Shown: positions 12,523 through 38,860 of the stretch, piece by piece | Layout: every line of letters begins with the position of its first letter | How positions within the stretch are numbered: the stretch's first letter is position 1 | Origin: Anolis carolinensis | Lineage: Eukaryota | Assembly (NCBI RefSeq): GCF_035594765.1 | Contig: NW_026943818.1 | Coordinates: 2,523,757 to 2,587,756 of the forward strand | Length of the DNA stretch: 64,000 nt | Reading direction: 5' to 3' | The notes under the pieces: model-generated | The model's input: the letters and a program-made list of their open reading frames with translations, nothing else | Database searches by the model: none | Told to the model about the DNA's origin: nothing | Position numbers and translations under genes: made by a program

Positions 12523-15500
12523 GAATACCCCGCTTTATCTCTCCCACAGGAGATCCAAAGTGGCTATGTATCTTCTATTATTATTATTATTATTATTGTA
12601 TGACACAGCAAACAAGATACATATGCTGGATTTCATTATTATTATTATTTCCGCAAAGGATGCAGAAATACAGAGAAAAGATGGGCAAAGACACGCATCC
12701 ACTACTAACTTCGAAAACTGGAACACATCGAAGACAAACTTCTCCAGCTTTATCCCGTTGGGTTTGAGCGGCTTTATCAAATTCCCTTCTTTGTCGACAA
12801 AAGGGACCTTCTTAATGGCCACGTGGGGTCTCAGCTGAGGCTCGTATTTCCTAGCAGGAGGGAATAACAGAATCACAGAGCTGCAAGGGATCCTCAAAGG
12901 CCATCCAGTCCAACCCTGAAAAGCAAAAAAGGAGGAGAACTGCAAACATACTCGGCCACATCCCGCAGGAAGTCCCGGGTGAAGAAATGGTTGCAGATAT
13001 TCCCGGCGCTGTAGGTCAAGCGTCCGTCCGGGTTCCGGCTCTGGGCCAATTCGAGGGGCAGCTCGCTGTACTCCACAACCTGGTAGGCTCCTTCCACGCA
13101 ACACACCACGCCCACCGGCTCCTCAGGGCAGGTTTTTTCCACCACCTGCACAATAACAACAACAACAACAACAAAACCACTACAATTAGGAAGCGGATGG
13201 ACCTCTAAGGCGGAAGTAAACCACAAGGTAATAATCTATCCTGTATTTATTATGATTTTACCATTTATGTGTTTTAAATGCAATTTTTTATCCTGTATTT
13301 TTGTTTTAATTGATATATTGTATTACTGTTTTATCTTTTTATAGTGTGATTTGTATTACGTTGCATATATTTTGTCCTGTGTTGTTTGGGCCTCTGCCCC
13401 CTGTAAGCCGCCCCGAGTCCCCGCGGGGAGATGGTGGCGGGGGATAAATAAAGTTTTATTATTATTAAGGTAACCATAAGCAATTCATGAGTAAGCAAAT
13501 ACTGACACAGTCTGAATTAAGGTCTATGTACAAGGTTCTTGGAAGAATGGAATTAAGTAATTTATATGTTTTTTATGCTTTTTATTTATTTATTACAATA
13601 TTTATATCCCGCCCTTCTCACCCAGCAGGGGACTCAGGGTGGCTTTTTAATGTTTGTATAATGCATCTTTACTGATTACTGTTAATGGTTTTAAATGTGT
13701 TGTTCATTTCATTGATTGTTTGGCATTGAATGGGTGTTGTAAGCCGCCTTGAATCCCTTCGGGTGAGAAAGGCGGGGTAAAAATGTTGTAAATAAATAAA
13801 TAAGCCAACAGTGCAGTGCAGCTGCTAAAAAGGCCAATGCGGTTCTAGGCTGCATCAATAGAAGTATAGCAGTCCTAGTTCCTCTCTTCTGTTTTAATCA
13901 GACTTCTTTACCCCTTGTCTCCACTTCTGGGAGTCCAGTGGAGTTGTTTTCCTTCTCTGGAGGTCTTAAGCAGAGGCTGGATGGCCGTCTGTTGGGAGGG
14001 CTTGGATTGTGCCTTCCTGCCGGATAGAAAGGAGTTGGACTGGAAGGCCCTTGGGATTTCCGCTAAGGGATGAAGGCTGAGACTTTCAAGGAATAAATGA
14101 TAAACACGGATGGACCTATGGATACAGTATGAGGTTGTATGGACGAACGGATCTGATCGAATGTTTTAAATTTATATATTGTAATTTTATATTGCATTTA
14201 ATAGTCTTAATTGATTTTATGTATTGTTCGATATTGTTTTTGTGTGGGCATCGAATTGTGGCCATTGTTGTAGACCGCCCTGAGTCCCTTTGGGTGAGAA
14301 AGGCGGGATGCAAATGTTGGAAATAAATAAATAAGACTGCCTCCTCTTAGTTTGGACCCAAACCAGGCTGGGCTGTGGCGCAGGCTGGTCAGCAGCCAGC
14401 TGCAACAAATCACTCTGACCAAGAGGTCATGAGTTCGAGGCCTGCCCATGCCTCTGTCTCTGTCTCTGTTCTATGTTATGGCATTGAATGTTTGCCTTAT
14501 ATGTGCAATGTGATCCGCCCTGAGTCCCCTTTGAGGTGAGAAGGACGGAATATAAATACTGTAAAGAAATAAATAAATAAACCACGACAAGGGAGAGAAC
14601 GGGAAGCCCGGCTGCTTCCTGGCAGGACGTCACCTTTGCTCCGCAATCGGCCCCCTTGCAGACGGCAAACCCGACGAAGACGGGGTCGGCCATTTTGATC
14701 AGGATGTTGTCCACGCAGTAGACGTGGACGTACCGGACGCCACGCCGCTCCATGTCCTCCAGGATCTTGTGGTCCGCCAGGGCACGGTAGAGGCCCCCGT
14801 TGCCATCTGGGGCACAGAGAGCAAGGCCTGAAGCACCTGGACTAGGACTCCCACCATCCCCCCTGGCCTGGCCGGGAAACAGGGCGTACCTGGAGCCAGG
14901 GCCACCTTCCCCTTCGCCTCCAAGATGACCTTGCCTTCGAAGTCCACGGCCGGCAGCATCCGCTGCTCAAACAAGACCACGTCCGACTTCTCCAGGCCGA
15001 AATAGCCGTGGCGCTGGAAGAACTCCTCCGTCGGGCCCAAGGTGAACTCGCTGGTCATGATGTACCTGCGAGGAAATGCCCAGGTGAGCTACGGCTCCTG
15101 ATACAGATGCCTCCTGTCCTGATAGATCAGTGGCTCCCAAACTTATTTGGCCTGCTGCCGCCTTTCCAGAAAAAATATGACTCAGCGCCCCTGGAAAAGG
15201 GGGCGTGGCTTAGAGGGGTGGGCGTGGCTCCTGCTCAAGGGGGCGGGACTGAGCCTCTCCCCTAGTCAAGAGGGCGGGGCCACAAATGGGCAGCCAGGAA
15301 TGGGATGGGCGGAGTTACGAGCTCTGAGGCAGGGCTGAGCATCTATCCCTGTCCTAAGGTGCCTGCCAGGACACAGAGGAGGGGGCGGGGCCTCTATACC
15401 CCACCCCCGTGTTCTAACAAGCGCCTCAGGGGAGATATACAGAGGCTCAGCCCTGTCTCGGGCTCTTGGGAAAAGGCCCCGCCCCCACCCCTAGCCCCAC

Positions 15501-17228
15501 CCTTTAGTCAGGCCTCTCAGGAGAAATATAGAGGCTCAGCCCTGTCTCGGGCTCTTGGAAGGAGGCCCCGCCCCCATCCCTAGCCCCACCCTTTAGTCAG
15601 GCCTCTCAGGAGAAATATAGAGGCTCAGCCCTGTCTCGGGCTCTTGGGAAGAGGCCCCGCCCCCACCCCTAGCCCCACCCTTTAGTCAGGCCTCTCAGGA
15701 GAGGTATAGAGGCTCAGCCCTGTCTCGGGCTCTTGGAAGGAGGCCCTGCCCCCATCCCTAGCCCCACCCTTTAGTCAAGCCTCTCAGGAGAAATATAGAG
15801 GCTCAGCCCTGTCTCAGGCTCTTGGGAAGAGGCCCCGCCCCCACCCCTAGCCCCACCCTTTAGTCAGGCCTCTCAGGAGAAATATAGAGGCTCAGCCCTG
15901 TCTCAGGCACTTGGAAGGAGGCCCCGCCCCTAGCCCCACCCCCACCCTTTAGTCCTAAAAGGCCTCTCAGGAGAGGTATAGAGGCTCAGCCCTGTCTCGG
16001 GCTCTTGGAAGGAGGCCCCGCCCCCACCCCTAGCCCCACCCTTTAGTCAGGCCTCTCAAGAGAGGTATAGAGGCTCAGCCCTGTCTCAGGCTCTTGGAAG
16101 GAGGCCCCGCCCCTAGCCCCACCCCCACCCTTTAGTCCTAAAAGGCCTCTCAGGAGAGGTATAGAGGCTCAGCCCTGTCTCGGGCTCTTGGAAGGAGGCC
16201 CCGCCCCCACCCCTAGCCCCACCCTTTAGTCAGGCCTCTCAAGAGAGGTATAGAGGCTCAGCCCTGTCTCAGGCTCTTGGAAGGAGGCCCCGCCCCTAGC
16301 CCCACCCCCACCCTTTAGTCCTAAAAGGCCTCTCAGGAGAGGTATAGAGGCTCAGCCCTGTCTCAGGCTCTTGGAAGGAGGCCCCGCCCCCGCCCCCACC
16401 CCTAGCCCCACCCTTTAGTCAGGCCTCTCAAGAGAGGTATAGAGGCTCAGCCCTGTCTCAGGCTCTTGGAAGGAGGCCCCGCCCCCTTCCCTAGCTCCGC
16501 CCTCTGTGTTCCAACAAGCGCCTCGGGAGAGGTATAGATTCTCAGCCCTGTCTCGGGCTCTTGGGAAGACGCCACGCCCACTCTAGCTCTGCCCCCTGTG
16601 TCCTAACAGGCGCCTCGGGTGCTCAGCCCTGTTTCCAGCACTTGGGATAGAAGCTCAGCCCTGCCTCAGAGCTCGTAACTCCAGCGCCCACTTTGGGAAT
16701 CACTGTGATAAGAGGATGCATTCTATCAATCTGTTAACATTATATGTTGACTTTGCACCCTGGGTGCACAATTCCCCCCCCCCCCAAGAGTATGGGGCTG
16801 GGGTTGCCATGGCACCCACCACGGGACGGTGCAGCGCCCTCCGAAGCGCTCTCCCGCCAGATGCTGCACCCGTCGAAGGCGCTCGGCCTGGATCTGGTAG
16901 AGGGTCTTGCGGCTGGGCAGCCCCACGTCGTACATGCCCTTGGGGTAGGGCACCCCCAGGCGCGTCCCTTGCCCCCCGGCCAGCAGCAGCGCCGCCACCT
17001 CGTTCTGGGAGATCCGGCGGAGACCTTCGAAAGAAAAGGAGGACACACTCTGCACATGCTCAGAGGCAGCAGGGCCTGGGGCACAGAAGCCTTTGGGCTC
17101 CTGTATGGCGTGGAATCAGAGAATCCTAGATGGGAAGAGACCCCAAAGGCCATCCAGTCCAGTGACATTTCTGCCAGGCAGGAAGGCACAATCCAAGCCC
17201 TCCTGACAGATGGCCATACATTTATTTC

Positions 17229-17281
<53 letters not shown>

Positions 17282-18864
17282 GAGCTGGAAGGGATCCCAA
17301 GGGCCCCCTTCTGCTAAGTTGTAAGATATAATTACTATTACTATTACTACTACAGTAGAGTCTCACTTATTCTAACACTCGCTTATCCAACATTCTGGAT
17401 TATCCAACACATTTTTGTAGTCAATGTTTTCAATATATCGTGATATTTTGGTGCTAAATTTGTAAATACAGTAATTACTACATAGCATTACTGCATATTG
17501 AACTACTTTTTCTGTCAAATTTGTTGTATAACATGATGTTTTAGTGCTTAAAAGGTAAAATCATAACCTAATTTGATGTTTCATAGGCTTCTCCTTAATC
17601 TCTCCTTATTATCCAACGTATTCGCTTATCTAATGTTCTGCTGGCCCGTTTACGTTGGATAAGCGAAACTCTACTGTATTATTATTATGCCAAGTAGGAA
17701 TGAATATGTGATTATAATATTGTAATTTATTATATTACATAGCATCATATTATACTTTATTATATTATTATATATTATTATATATGATATTACATATTAT
17801 CATATTTAATTTATTACATTATATATTATTATATATTATATAATATAATACATTATAATATTATATTATAATGCATATTATTATATATTACAATAATACA
17901 ATTTATTATATTACATATTATCATATTATAATTATTATATAATACATTATCACAATTGATTATGTTACATATTATGTAATTATATTATTATATATTATAC
18001 TATATTTTATATTACTGTATTATATATTATATTACATATTATTATATTATTGATATTGTTATATATTATAATATTATCATATAATTGATTATATTACATA
18101 TTATATTATAACTTATTATTATATATTATAAATTTTATATTACATATTGTTCTATTATTATTTATTATATATTATTATTATCTTATAATACATTATTATT
18201 ATTATTATACATTATTATTGTTATTATTGCTAGACTCCTAGAGTTGGGAGGAACCCCAGGGGTCATCGAGTCCATATTATAATTTATTATATTACATATA
18301 TTATATTATATTATATAGTATTTTAATATATTACACATTATTATAAGTTATCATATTATATTATCAATTATTATATATTATTCATATATTACACATTATT
18401 ATTATTTATATATTATTATACATTATTATTATTATTGCTGGACTCCTACAGTTGGGAGGGACCCCAAGGGCCATCGAGTCCATATTATAAATTATATTAT
18501 ATTATTGATTATTATATATTATTCATATATTATACATTATTATTATTAATATATTATTATACATTCTTATTATTATTATTATTGCTAGACTCCTAGAGTT
18601 GGGAGGGACCCCACGGGCCATCGAGTCCAGCCCCCTCCTGCCTTCCCGACAGGCACAAGTGAACCCCTCCCGGCAGAGGCCCAGCCGGAGCTCACCTTCC
18701 TCCTCCCAGCGCGCCCGCTCCCCGGGGGGGCTCCTGGCGGCGCTGCCGAAGAAGGCGGGCGGGACGGGCTGCATGGGGCCGCGGGGGAGCCCCGCCCGGC
18801 TCTGCTCTTCCCGGTAGGCCCGGACTGCCCTCCGGCCGTGCTCTTCCAGGCCCGCCTCCTCCAT
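4730..18864 (-). CDS. UAP1L1: UDP-N-acetylhexosamine pyrophosphorylase-like 1, 9 exons, 466 aa as modelled
   Basis: Exons 18864-18696, 17024-16820, 15065-14890, 14806-14634, 13145-12952, 12850-12710, 11560-11375, 9299-9233, 4819-4730 (TGA). All introns are GT-AG with consistent phases (1401 nt). Motifs [60 protein letters not shown]. Lies between MAN1B1 and SAPCD2. The start codon is less certain than the rest. Confidence 0.95.
4944..7388 (-). mobile_element. 2.4-kb non-autonomous Helitron with GC-rich cargo in UAP1L1 intron 8
   Basis: Minus strand reads A|TCTATATATATAAAAGAGTGATGGCATC ... GCCACAGCAACGCGTGGCCGGGCACAGCTAG|T, with no TSD. Confidence 0.88.
7960..9100. repeat. 218-bp tandem repeat x5 (AT-rich sequence plus LINE/SINE tail)
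   Basis: gtaagccgct.tgagtcccc recurs at about 8165, 8383, 8601, 8819 and 9032. Confidence 0.85.
10494..10816. mobile_element. Tc1/mariner-type MITE (about 320 bp), representative of a family with more than 12 copies
   Basis: TA-flanked TIR cagtagagtctcacttatccaa. Other copies at 3124-3428, 10052-10358, 17353-17676, 21364-21686, 22481-22802, 23298-23620, 26745-27056, 29443-29733, 29856-30163, 46714-47036, 59106-59427 and inside Helitrons. Confidence 0.88.
10857..10899 (+). ncRNA. Minimal hammerhead ribozyme motif (Penelope-derived)
   Basis: cct-CTGAGGA-t-gcctgc-catagat-gtgggc-GAAA-C-GTC|agg. Intact core, stem II, palindromic ACGT stem III. Predicted cleavage after 10894. Confidence 0.65.
11895..12640 (-). 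mobile_element. Cluster of short Dong/R4 3' ends within (TTA)n microsatellites
   Basis: Repeated tatgacacagcaaac..gatatgctggatttcgtatcacaaaatcacaagtcgaacac, matching the 3' end at about 43540-43630. Confidence 0.75.
15128..16705. mobile_element. hAT-like non-autonomous element with an internal ~90-bp GC-rich minisatellite (about 13 units)
   Basis: Termini cagtggctcccaaa / tttgggaatcactg. Partial TSD tgatagat/tgataaga. Confidence 0.7.
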
Positions 18865-19710
18865 CGCCGTCTCTTCCCTTTGCTTAGCCAAGCAGGAAGG
18901 GGGCGTGGCCCTGTAGAAGAAGGGGCGTGGTTATGGAGAATCCAAGAGGATTTATTAAGTTAGCAAACCTGCTCCTCAGCCAATGGCCAGTCAGAACTCC
19001 CCCTGCTCTGTCCAATGAGCGCGGAGGGACGTGGCGTGGCTGACGTCGTCCCATTGTGACGTCCCAGCGGCGGCCCATTCAAATCCAACCTGCTCCTCAG
19101 CCAAGTGGGCAGTCTGTCCAATGAGCGCAGAGGGGCGTGGCGTCCTAGCGGCGGCCCATTCAAATCCAACCTGCTCCTCAGCCAAGTGGGCAGTCTGTCC
19201 AATGAGCGCGGAGGGGCGTGGCGTGGCTGACGTCCCATTGTGACGTCCCAGTGGCGGCCCATTCAAATCCAACCTGCTCCTCAGCCAAGGGGGCAGTCTG
19301 TCCAATGAGCGCGGAGGGGCGTGGCGTGGCTGACGTCCCAGTGGCGGCCCATTCAAATCCAACCTGCTCCTCAGCCAATGGCCAGTCAGAACTCCCCCTG
19401 CTCTGTCCAATGAGCGTAGAGGGGCGTGGCGTGGCTGACGTCCCATTGTGACGTCCCAGTGGCGGCCCATTCAAATCCAACCTGCTCCTCAGCCAAGTGG
19501 GCAGTCTGTCCAATGAGCGCGGAGGGGCGTGGCGTGGCTGACGTCCCAGTGGCGGCCCATTCAAATCCAACCTGCTCCTCAGCCAAGTGGGCAGTCTGTC
19601 CAATGAGCGCGAAGGGGCGTGGCGTGCCTGGCGCCGTCCCATTGAGGAGCGCGGAACGTTGTGACGTCAGAGCGGCGGCCCATTCAAGCCGGGGGACGGT
19701 TGGCCCATTG
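18865..19710. promoter_or_regulatory. UAP1L1/SAPCD2 bidirectional promoter composed of about 7 tandem 80-120 bp modules
   Basis: 846 nt between divergent ATGs. Repeated CCAAT, GGGGCGTGGC, TGACGTC and TTCAAA (CHR) elements. Confidence 0.85.
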
Positions 19711-20599
19711 ATGGCTCCGGGTGAGGCGCTCCCGCCGGCCTTCCTGCGCAGCCTGCGCACCCTCTTCGACCTGCTGGACGAGCGCGGGCGGGGCTTCGTG
19801 CACCTGCGGGAGATCGAGTCTCGCTGGCTGCTGCCCGGGGACGGGGTGCGCGAGGGCCTGCGCGGCGCCGCCTCCCCCGACGGGACCCTCACCTTCGAGC
19901 GCCTCCTCCTCGGCCTCCGCGCCTCCCTCCCCGCCCACAGGCCGACGCAGGGTCCTAATGCCCCACCTCTACCCTCCAAACAGGACGTCCCGCGGCGGAC
20001 GGGAAGAAACCGGAGGCACACCATCACCAGCGGAGTCGACTACGGCATGGTACCCTCACTTCTGTCCATCATACTAACCTTTGGGTTGCTTTGAGTTTCC
20101 CCAGAAGCACTCTCTCCTGACGTTTCGCCCACATCTATAGTCAGAGGTTGAGAGATCTGTTGGAAACTAAGTCAGTGAGGTCTCTATCTCTCTGGAATGT
20201 CCAGTTTGGGGAAATCCCACAATCAGGGCCAGCTAACACCTCCCGGGAGGGGAGAGGAATCCAATTTATTTATTTATGTATTTATTTACTACATTTATAT
20301 CCACTCAGAGTGGCTTACAAATCCAATGAACATACAATATATCAGGGGTCCCCAAACTTTTTAAGCAGAGGGCCGGTCCACAACCCTTCAGACTGTGGAG
20401 GGGCCGAATTATCATTTGAAAAAAAATACAAACAAATTCCTATGCACACTGCACATGTCTTATTTGTAGTGCAACAACAACAACAACGAAAGAATACAAT
20501 ATTTTAAAATGAAAACAATTTTAACCAACACAAACCTATTAGGATTTCAATGGAATGTGTGGGCCTGCTACTGGCCAATGATAGTCAAGTTAATTAGGG

Positions 20600-36194: not shown

Positions 36195-38860
36195 GAAAAG
36201 CTCAGTTTGCTGCAACTAAATTGAAAATGGGAGCGTCTTACACTCAATGGTGTCTTATAGATGAAGAAATATGGTACTTTTGCATTTTGAAGCTCAGTTT
36301 GCAGTGGTGTCTTATAGATGAAGAAATATGGTACTTTTGCATTTTGAAGCTCAGTTTGCAGTGGTGTCTTATAGATGAAAAAATACGGTACTTTTGCACC
36401 TTGACACTCGGTTTGCAGCAACTAAATTGAAATTGAGGTGCGTCTTATAATGAATGGTGTCTTATAGATGAAGAAATACGGTACTTTTGCACCTTGACGC
36501 TCGGTTTGCAGCAACTAAATTGAAATTGGGGTGCGTCTTATAATGAATGGTGTCTTATAGATGAAGAAATACGGTACTTTCGCATTTTGAAGCTCAGTTT
36601 GAAGTGGTGTCTTATAGATGAAGAAATATGGTACTTTTGCATTTTGAAGCTCAGTTTGCAGTGGTGTCTAATAGATGAATAAATACGGTACTTTTGCATT
36701 TTGAAGCTCAGTTTGCAGTGGTGTCTTATAGATGAAGAAATATGGTACTTTTGCATTTTGAAGCTCAGTTTGCAGTGGTGTCTTATAGATGAAGAAATAC
36801 GGTACTTTTGCACCTTGACGCTCGGTTTGCAGCAACTAAATTGAAATTGAGGTGCGTCTTATAATGAATGGTGTCTTATAGATGAAGAAATACGGTACTT
36901 TTGCACCTTGACGCTCGGTTTCCAGCAACTAAATTGAAATTGGGGTGCGTCTTATAATGAATGGTGTCTTATAGATGAAGAAATACGGTACTTTTGCACC
37001 TTGACGCTCGGTTTGCAGCAACTAAATTGAAATTGGGGTGCGTCTTATAATGAATGGTGTCTTATAGATGAAGAAATACGGTACTTTTGCACCTTGACGC
37101 TCGGTTTGCAGCAACTAAATTGAAATTGGGGTGCGTCTTATAATGAATGGTGTCTTATAGATGAAGAAATACGGTACTTTCGCATTTTGAAGCTCAGTTT
37201 GAAGTGGTGTCTTATAGATGAAGAAATATGGTACTTTTGCATTTTGAAGCTCAGTTTGCAGTGGTGTCTAATAGATGAATAAATACGGTACTTTTGCATT
37301 TTGAAGCTCAGTTTGCAGTGGTGTCTTATAGATGAAGAAATATGGTACTTTTGCATTTTGAAGCTCAGTTTGCAGTGGTGTCTTATAGATGAAGAAATAC
37401 GGTACTTTTGCACCTTGACGCTCGGTTTGCAGCAACTAAATTGAAATTGAGGTGCGTCTTATAATGAATGGTGTCTTATAGATGAAGAAATACGGTACTT
37501 TTGCACCTTGACGCTCGGTTTCCAGCAACTAAATTGAAATTGGGGTGCGTCTTATAATGAATGGTGTCTTATAGATGAAGAAATACGGTACTTTTGCACC
37601 TTGACGCTCGGTTTGCAGCAACTAAATTGAAATTGGGGTGCGTCTTATAATGAATGGTGTCTTATAGATGAAGAAATACGGTACTTTTGCACCTTGACGC
37701 TCGGTTTCCAGCAACTAAATTGAAATTGGGGTGCGTCTTATAATGAATGGTGTCTTATAGATGAAGAAATACGGTACTTTCGCATTTTGAAGCTCAGTTT
37801 GAAGTGGTGTCTTATAGATGAAGAAATATGGTACTTTTGCATTTTGAAGCTCAGTTTGCAGTTGTGTCTTATAGATGAAGAAATATGGTACTTTTGCATT
37901 TTGAAGCTCAGTTTGCAGTTGTGTCTTATAGATGAAGAAATATGGTACTTTTGCATTTTGAAGCTCGGTTTGCGCTGGTGTCTTATAGCTGAAGTAATAC
38001 GGTACTTTTGCATTTAAAAGCTCATTTTGCAGTGGTGTCTTATAGATGAAGAAATATGGTACTTTCGCATTTTGAAGCTCGGTTTGCAGCAACTAAATTG
38101 AAATTGGGGTGCATCTTATAATGAATGGTGTCTTATAGATGAAGAAATATGGTACTTTCGCATTTTGAAGCTCTGAAGTGGTGTCTTATAGATGAAGAAA
38201 TATGGTACTTTTGCATTTTGAAGCTCAGTTTGCAGCAACTCAACTGAAATTTGGACGCGTCTTACAATCGGTGTCTTATAGATGAAGAAATATGGTACTT
38301 TCACATTTTGAAGCTCAGTTTGCAGACACTTAACTGAAATTGGGAAGTGTCTTATAATGAATGGTGCCTTATAGATGAAGAAATACGGTACGTTTTCACT
38401 TTGAAGCTCAGTTTGCAGACACGTAACTGAAACTGGGACACGTCTTACAATCAATGGTGTCTTATAGATGAAGAAATATAGTACTTTTGCACTTTGAAGC
38501 TCAGTTTGCAGCAACTCAACTGAAATTGGGACGTGTCTTACAATCAACGGTGTCTTATAGATGAAGAAATACAGTACTTTTGCATTTAGAAGCTCAGTTT
38601 GCAGCCACTAAACTGAAATTGGGATGCGTCTTACAATCAATGGTGTCTTATAGATGAAGAAATACAGTACTTTTGCATTTTGAAGCTCAGTTTGCAGCAA
38701 CTCAACTGAAATTGGAATGCGCCTTGCAATCAATGGTGTCTTATAGATGAAGAAATACGGTACTTTTGCATTTAGAAGCTCAGTTTGCAGCAACTAAACT
38801 GAAATTGGAATGCGCCTTGCAATCAATGGTGTCTTATAGATGAAGAAATACGGTACTTTT
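36195..38860. repeat. Satellite of ~58/~93 bp units with a 600-bp higher-order period
   Basis: Recurring gtgtcttatagatgaagaaata(c/t)ggtacttttgca. Identical ORFs at 36538 and 37138. Confidence 0.92.

Follow-up and report, generated by a model that had tools for sequence, protein, structure and literature searches.

A tandem array of a candidate G2/M core promoter module between UAP1L1 and SAPCD2 in Anolis carolinensis

In the Anolis carolinensis DNA analysed here (64 kb in total, referred to below as the window), UAP1L1 and SAPCD2 lie head to head, with their ATGs 846 bp apart and a tandem array between them. SAPCD2 exon 1 (19711–20049, + strand) starts with the ATG at 19711 and ends at a splice donor after 20049. 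It is 100% identical to A. carolinensis XP_008123014 and matches the Pfam domain SAPC2_N with an E value of 5.6e-18. The first coding exon of UAP1L1, located with tblastn, occupies 18694–18864 on the minus strand, with its ATG at 18864–18862 and a splice donor after 18694. Both genes are represented by spliced contigs, which depart from the genomic sequence at 18694 and 20049, in both of the RNA-like runs examined (X19 and X20, from two studies), which were judged to be RNA from the loose ends of contigs at splice junctions. A sequence-only reading of this DNA had named UAP1L1 and SAPCD2 as the genes beside the array, and protein identity, Pfam, tblastn and the spliced contigs all confirm this.

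Alignment revealed that the UAP1L1 proteins (P0245 and P0243) of A. carolinensis (466 aa) and A. sagrei (478 aa) lack approximately 45 conserved N-terminal residues, including a GQxHLLRFW motif, that Pogona, two birds, a mammal and Xenopus all possess. The UAP1L1 RNA contigs continue unspliced from 18694 up to 18913 in X19 and 18995 in X20, and an in-frame TAA is present upstream of the ATG at 18931–18933 (minus strand). As an RNA contig crosses this in-frame stop, the truncation looks real. We rejected the possibility that the array, or an exon further upstream, conceals the missing N-terminus, on the strength of the unspliced contigs, the stop codon and a tblastn search: among the matches listed, there was no credible one in the window to the first 50 residues of Pogona UAP1L1. 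The comparison suggests that a deletion in Anolis had already placed UAP1L1 beside the promoter of SAPCD2 when the array formed.

Further variation and repeats were seen in the two genes. Polymorphisms P27L and P35L in UAP1L1 (window positions 18785 and 18761) were found in run X7 and in protein P0247. A UAP1L1 intron contains, at 15425–16579, a GC-rich 89/183-bp minisatellite of approximately 13 units, each with a CCCCGCCCC GC-box-like run. In SAPCD2 intron 1, Tandem Repeats Finder (TRF) rows recur at 811-bp spacing over approximately 23700–25900 (23730/24541 and 24168/24979), suggesting a recent local duplication.

The array consists of seven head-to-tail units that together span 18966–19691. 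Unit boundaries were set by cutting at an invariant 18-base head, which gives unit starts at 18966, 19087, 19168, 19271, 19361, 19479 and 19569, and lengths of 121, 81, 103, 90, 118, 90 and about 121–123 bp for units 1 to 7. TRF returned periods of 81, 90 and 208 over the same region. About seven units of 80–120 bp filling the gap had been described previously; the tandem structure stands, with seven units of 81–123 bp, and the array takes up most of the gap (approximately 725 of the 846 bp) and not all of it. The array is 64% GC with a CpG observed/expected ratio of 0.70, and lies within a CpG island immediately 5' of the SAPCD2 ATG. No TATAAA is present in 18801–19720. On the UAP1L1 side, the array is flanked by unique sequence that forms the UAP1L1 5' leader (18865–18965) and includes two GGGGCGTGG boxes (18900 and 18922) and the heptamer AATCCAA at 18939. 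Units 1–6 differ from one another by 0–4 substitutions plus block indels, and unit 7 is the most diverged, with 3–10 substitutions relative to the others. Long and short units alternate over 18966–19568, forming pairs of 202, 193 and 208 bp. These pairs constitute a higher-order repeat close in length to the nucleosome repeat, which may be a coincidence.

All seven units are described here on the + strand. Unit 1 (18966–19086, long type) contains two CCAAT boxes 32 bp apart (18980 and 19012), a variant GC box, two copies of TGACGTC, and GGCGG followed after 4 bp by TTCAAA at 19078. Unit 2 (19087–19167, 81 bp) has a single CCAAT at 19118, a GC box and TTCAAA at 19159, and lacks TGACGTC. Unit 3 (19168–19270, 103 bp) has CCAAT at 19199, a GC box, two copies of TGACGTC and TTCAAA at 19262, and unit 4 (19271–19360, 90 bp) has CCAAT at 19302, a GC box, TGACGTC and TTCAAA at 19352. 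Unit 5 (19361–19478, 118 bp) is again of the long type, with CCAAT boxes 32 bp apart at 19375 and 19407, a GC box, two copies of TGACGTC and TTCAAA at 19470. Unit 6 (19479–19568, 90 bp) carries CCAAT at 19510, overlapped by an in-frame upstream ATG at 19513, a GC box, TGACGTC and TTCAAA at 19560. The terminal unit 7 (19569–19691) carries CCAAT at 19600 with an in-frame upstream ATG at 19603, a GC box, the only full cAMP response element (CRE) of the array at 19662, and GGCGG followed after 4 bp by TTCAAG at 19683.

The hexamer TTCAAA, which is an inverse CHR (homology region of cell-cycle genes), is therefore found in six of the seven units and the variant TTCAAG in the seventh. Seven CCAAT boxes, one per unit, lie within a gtCCAATgagcg box and two (18980 and 19375) lie outside one. 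When the motifs were re-scanned, every coordinate previously given for CHR, CCAAT and CRE proved exact. The repeated TGACGTC (nine copies in the array) and GC box were generally present as claimed, with the exceptions of unit 2, which has no TGACGTC, and unit 1, where the first GC box is a variant. CCAAT lies upstream of the CHR in 7/7 units, as a 32-bp pair in 2/7 (units 1 and 5), and each CHR is preceded by (C/T)GGCGG at −10 to −5, a CDE-like element separated from it by a 4 bp gap, which the sequence-only reading had overlooked. CCAAT, GGCGG and CHR are intact in every unit; the short units lack the CCAAT pair and the full CRE. One report considered as support for the CRE (PMC12896413) was dropped, as it concerns CREB acting on PLAGL2 and not the SAPCD2 promoter.

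The six copies of TTCAAA are one event that has been copied, and not six independent occurrences. When each of three units was subjected to 20,000 dinucleotide shuffles, with patterns that had been picked after viewing the sequence, CCAAT together with a canonical CHR arose within one unit in 0.1–0.3% of shuffles, and GGCGG-4bp-CHR in at most 0.015%. A control array in the window (36248–38860), a 57/93-bp minisatellite outside any CpG island, contains TTTGAA 24 times and ATTGG 13 times. As this non-promoter array repeats both motifs too, motifs alone are weak proof, and the argument that the units are promoters depends instead on where they lie and on orthology.

The array was sought in public sequencing runs. 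At least half of the sampled words were found in 20 of 24 listed runs, from 10 studies. Six of the 24 were compared with the window, all as contigs, and DNA support comes from four of these (X1, X7, X11 and X13, from four studies). No contig in the six runs spanned the whole array. The depths of X1 contigs (12.3, 12.6, 14.7, 24.6 and 42.5) fit window copy classes of 1, 1, 1, 2 and 3–4; X1 is identical to the window in the compared stretch and is possibly not independent of it. X7 differs from the window by three letters at the end of UAP1L1, two of which change codons 27 and 35 to leucine, and this run with two other UAP1L1 alleles nonetheless contains a unit-to-unit junction and new unit variants. 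Its depths (517 on the flank and thousands on the units) are non-uniform and were left out of copy estimates.

A 36-bp unit junction, present in six copies in the window, was used for X11 and X13, which are only 3–6x deep and in which, as elsewhere, contig depth is not equal to copy number. The junction depth in X11 is 19.3 compared with 3–4.1 for unique DNA, a ratio of 4.7–6.4. In X13 it is 14.4 compared with 4.85–6.2; when two unlisted records were fitted so that a reconstruction matched the binned depths, the value was 13–18, or a ratio of 2.1–3.7. The X13 depth has a Poisson P of 0.011 or less under six junction copies, and its junction contig is unbroken where the unit mix of the window would break it. 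Thus, of the previous suggestion that the module forms a VNTR, the amplification stands, and copy-number variation is weakly supported by the different ratios in X11 and X13 and by differing unit variants. We consider it likely that unit number varies between animals. There is a hint that some animals have shorter alleles, and as coverage is low and depth is no copy number, the X13 depth is a hint of this and not a genotype. The sequence-only reading had allowed that raw reads might reveal a single unit misassembled into an array, and we give this virtually no credence since, although the units are near-identical and no contig crosses them all, the junction contigs in X11 and X13 are several times deeper than the flanks (P for one copy 6e-10 to 5e-3), X7 has the tandem junction, X1 has copy-proportional depths, and the four runs are from four studies.

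X11 and X13 (two studies) also include a contig whose match is confined to the CRE-GGCGG-CHR tail of unit 7 (19662–19696), the DNA that precedes the match being dissimilar. In X13, this contig (395 bp, depth 8.35) has 3 differences and leads into a start codon with surroundings like those of SAPCD2. The contig resembles a second, diverged promoter copy located elsewhere in the genome. No such copy is present in the window, and none of 65 matches was a second SAPCD2-like Anolis protein of 81–261 aa.

Human SAPCD2, for which C9orf140 is an alias (PMC9066194), provides a comparison. Table S3 of PMC4176359 records C9orf140 with a G2/M peak and a TTTGAA with a conservation score of 0.974, strand '-', at −5. 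In that paper, the CHRs of UBE2C and PLK4 are called inverse and are coded '-' like that of C9orf140, and Table S3 assigns '+' to CDC25C, AURKB and CCNA2, which lie on the minus strand and have forward CHRs. From this coding it follows that the human SAPCD2 CHR is inverse to its gene, as in the anole units. Binding by DREAM is given as a four-digit code, which we take to represent four data sets, with 0010 presumably meaning one of the four. The code for C9orf140 is 0010, compared with 1111 for all six reference genes, including CCNB2, PLK4 and UBE2C, and C9orf140 is not in the 148-gene CHR list in Table 1 of the same paper (PMC4176359). Human SAPCD2 is, accordingly, a weak DREAM call. The supplements of PMC4994865 other than file 1 contained no matching row.

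The anole units share several features with published CHR-class G2/M promoters (CCNB2, CDC25C, UBE2C, PLK4 and MKI67): the absence of TATAAA, CCAAT boxes 32 bp apart 5' of the CHR, and a GC-rich CDE-like hexamer 4 bp 5' of the CHR. The CCAAT spacing in units 1 and 5 falls within the 31–33 nt stated for this class in section 16 of PMC3874167, and the GGCGG lies at the same offset from the CHR as the CDE of CDC25C in Table S3 of PMC4176359. Like the PLK4 promoter, which unites a CRE, a CDE and an inverse CHR (PMC4176359, PMC3874167), the anole units carry a CRE, and like human SAPCD2 they have an inverse CHR. Unit 7 carries the non-canonical TTCAAG, which in inverse orientation reads CTTGAA, the CHR of CCNA2 and one that PMC4176359 lists as functional; a validated CHR hexamer in one or other orientation is thus present in 7/7 units (TTCAAA in six, TTCAAG in one). 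It had been stated that such promoters normally have one CHR. As a strict rule this fails, as the text available from PMC8629999 describes two in MKI67. Where the anole array departs from the CHR-class promoters, each of which in the portions of PMC3287175, PMC4176359 and PMC3874167 consulted has a single module containing one CHR or two, is that its candidate module is repeated seven times. The proposal that a whole CCAAT/GC-box/CRE/CHR promoter module has been amplified is supported by the human G2/M peak, the conserved inverse CHR at −5 and the array's presence in independent runs.

A second line of orthology comes from A. sagrei. The predicted SAPCD2 protein of this species has an N-terminal extension that reads through upstream DNA and, within the window, aligns best to 19655–19699 (11/15 residues, E value 6.5e-4) and less well to unit 1; the match is at the protein level only and is silent on the number of units in A. 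sagrei. It covers the CRE-GGCGG stretch of the unit 7 tail and differs at the CHR position itself. Judging from the sequences, the ancestral promoter would survive in two parts, unit 1 retaining its head and unit 7 its tail. With six extra units removed, the two ATGs would be 243 bp apart, and the single ancestral promoter, in the approximately 240 bp between them, would have comprised CCAAT-32bp-CCAAT, a GC box, a CRE, GGCGG-4bp-inverse CHR and the start. AATCCAA, found at 18939 in the left flank, is found again at every unit junction, which points to an initial duplication that fused the CHR with this point. The TTCAAA of units 1–6 may have been created at the duplication junction, or unit 7 may equally have drifted to TTCAAG. 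After the first duplication had joined the CHR to the left flank, unequal exchange would have copied pairs of long and short units.

The array very probably originated by amplification of the core promoter of SAPCD2 itself. A generic or transposon-derived minisatellite with motifs that arose by chance would find a parallel in the TTTGAA- and ATTGG-rich array at 36248–38860; however, the unit sequence had no blastn match elsewhere in the 64-kb window, Rfam returned no match for the array, and its location in a CpG island right before the ATG and its agreement both with the CHR of human SAPCD2 and with the protein model from A. sagrei make this origin most improbable.

Read towards SAPCD2, the order of elements is CCAAT, GC box, CRE, CDE-like hexamer, CHR and start, and towards UAP1L1 it is reversed. 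The layout is that of a bidirectional promoter, with head-to-head ATGs <1 kb apart and both genes transcribed in X19 and X20. The sequence-only reading suggested that UAP1L1 could have come under cell-cycle control, and a fully bidirectional promoter would entail that UAP1L1 in Anolis, having lost its first codons along with the promoter it once had, now depends on the SAPCD2 module for both its transcription and its cell-cycle regulation. Several observations are compatible with this: the ATGs are 846 bp apart, whereas in human 6.9 kb separates the start sites; the conserved N-terminus is missing from both Anolis UAP1L1 models; the X20 UAP1L1 contig extends into unit 1, to 18995; and the CHRs read forward (TTTGAA) for UAP1L1. 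However, position 18995 is where the 31-mers of unit 1 and unit 5 merge, so the contig end may be a graph break, and GC boxes belonging to UAP1L1 itself are present at 18900 and 18922. For UAP1L1 the CHR would also come first and CCAAT last, the reverse of the usual order, and element order is suggested to set the direction of CHR promoters (PMC4176359 section 30). In the head-to-head cases described in that section, only one partner is ever a late cell-cycle gene. Table S3 of the same paper gives human UAP1L1 a DREAM code of 0000 and no cell-cycle peak, with its start 6.9 kb from that of SAPCD2. As the published pairs are not co-regulated, human UAP1L1 lacks a peak in this source and the order favours SAPCD2, cell-cycle control of UAP1L1 is not supported and its capture by the module is unlikely.

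The RNA contigs also bear on where SAPCD2 transcription starts. SAPCD2 contigs begin, with no loose end, at 19677 in X20 and 19578 in X19, beside the CHRs at 19683 (unit 7) and 19560 (unit 6). As contigs reveal neither strand nor true start, their ends are a weak guide, and give a weak hint of several start sites near the CHRs of units 6 and 7. Word shares computed from the two spliced contigs alone were 0.55 and 0.54, compared with listed values of 0.53 and 0.51 (X19 and X20, respectively), and judged by these word shares there was no sign of RNA from units 2–5 in either run, an absence that carries no weight as evidence. An ATG in poor context is embedded in every gtCCAATg box. In units 1–5 these ATGs open ORFs of 13–48 codons that end inside the array, and the ones at 19513 and 19603 share the SAPCD2 reading frame. 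SAPCD2 models P0248 and P0003 start exactly at these two ATGs, adding 66 or 36 residues of translated repeat, and the extended starts are probably annotation artefacts rather than real use.

At its most elaborate, the locus could be a copy-number-polymorphic cell-cycle promoter with multiple starts, in which any unit can fire, distal starts are damped by upstream ORFs, starts in the last units extend SAPCD2 at its N-terminus, the number of units sets the dose of a spindle-orientation regulator in anole progenitors, and UAP1L1 has been moved onto the module by an Anolis-lineage deletion of its promoter and first codons. We regard this combination as rather unlikely.

The array may instead be a neutral by-product of a high local rate of minisatellite formation, in which unit 7, perhaps with unit 6, is the only functional part and adding or removing units makes no measurable difference. 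Thirteen arrays with a period of at least 50 and at least three copies make up 19% of the window, and TRF arrays in total 30%. Given this density of long-period arrays, selection need not be invoked to explain the amplification. According to the part of PMC10702118 consulted, interspersed DNA is known to undergo tandem amplification in A. carolinensis, a species rich in satellites derived from SINEs. The loss of the CCAAT pair and the full CRE from the short units fits a neutral array, as do RNA-run word shares that need no array interior and the youth of units 1–6, which are 0–4 substitutions apart. Against it, CCAAT, GGCGG and CHR are intact in all seven units, although youth accounts for that too, human promoter VNTRs are reported by Garg et al. 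to be enriched for expression effects, and the promoter VNTR of TRIB3 shows a copy-number effect (PMC7425993). Neutrality is a possible explanation that we consider less than probable.

We favour, at somewhat better than even odds, a recent amplification of the TATA-less G2/M core promoter of SAPCD2, with the extra NF-Y and MuvB (DREAM/MMB) sites acting on SAPCD2 and not on UAP1L1. At each unit, NF-Y, Sp/KLF and CREB/ATF would act as activators, and LIN54-MuvB as a repressor in G0/G1 and an activator in G2/M. Most SAPCD2 transcripts would begin at the unit 7 CHR, and some at the unit 6 CHR. Starts further 5' would include the ATG of a gtCCAATg box, and hence either the short upstream ORFs of units 1–5 or extensions of 36 (unit 7) or 66 (unit 6) residues. 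Unit number, which probably varies, would modestly change the amplitude of SAPCD2 expression; that this effect is measurable has, in our estimate, a chance that approaches one in two.

The closest parallel is the 33-bp VNTR in the TRIB3 promoter, where, according to the available text of PMC7425993, a conserved regulatory element that is single in other species is in tandem in one lineage. Like it, the anole array is a tandem repeat over regulatory elements that is present in real DNA. In TRIB3, copy number is variable with a proven effect, whereas in the anole array both variation and effect are only hinted at, and TRIB3 repeats one C/EBP-ATF site, whereas the anole unit is an 80–120 bp multi-site core promoter with a predicted repressor/activator switch. 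The MSY2 minisatellite of primate DDX3Y, with a unit of about 100 bp, is also similar. There, an upstream unit amplified in tandem is associated with an added start site (PMC3039753, in the part consulted). MSY2 is a distal testis promoter, whereas the anole unit is the proximal core promoter itself. In Aspergillus cyp51A, the TR34, TR46 and TR120 alleles are tandem promoter copies that add sites for a different set of factors, and not a cell-cycle CHR module. The spacer promoters of rDNA are tandem promoter copies for a different polymerase, and do not contain the CHR module of a single-copy vertebrate gene. A literature search, which covered few subscription journals, found no paper on a VNTR built of a CHR module, nor on this locus.

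Functional promoter VNTRs are well known, and the documented cases considered here mostly repeat a single factor site. In the anole array it is a mitotic gene's entire NF-Y/CRE/CDE-CHR module that is repeated. Should the copies prove inert, the array is a curiosity of a repeat-prone genome. If unit number varies, it would provide a natural allelic series for the additivity of MuvB repression and activation with site number, and could show if start sites are set by individual CHRs and how a CHR promoter lying between head-to-head genes acquires its direction.
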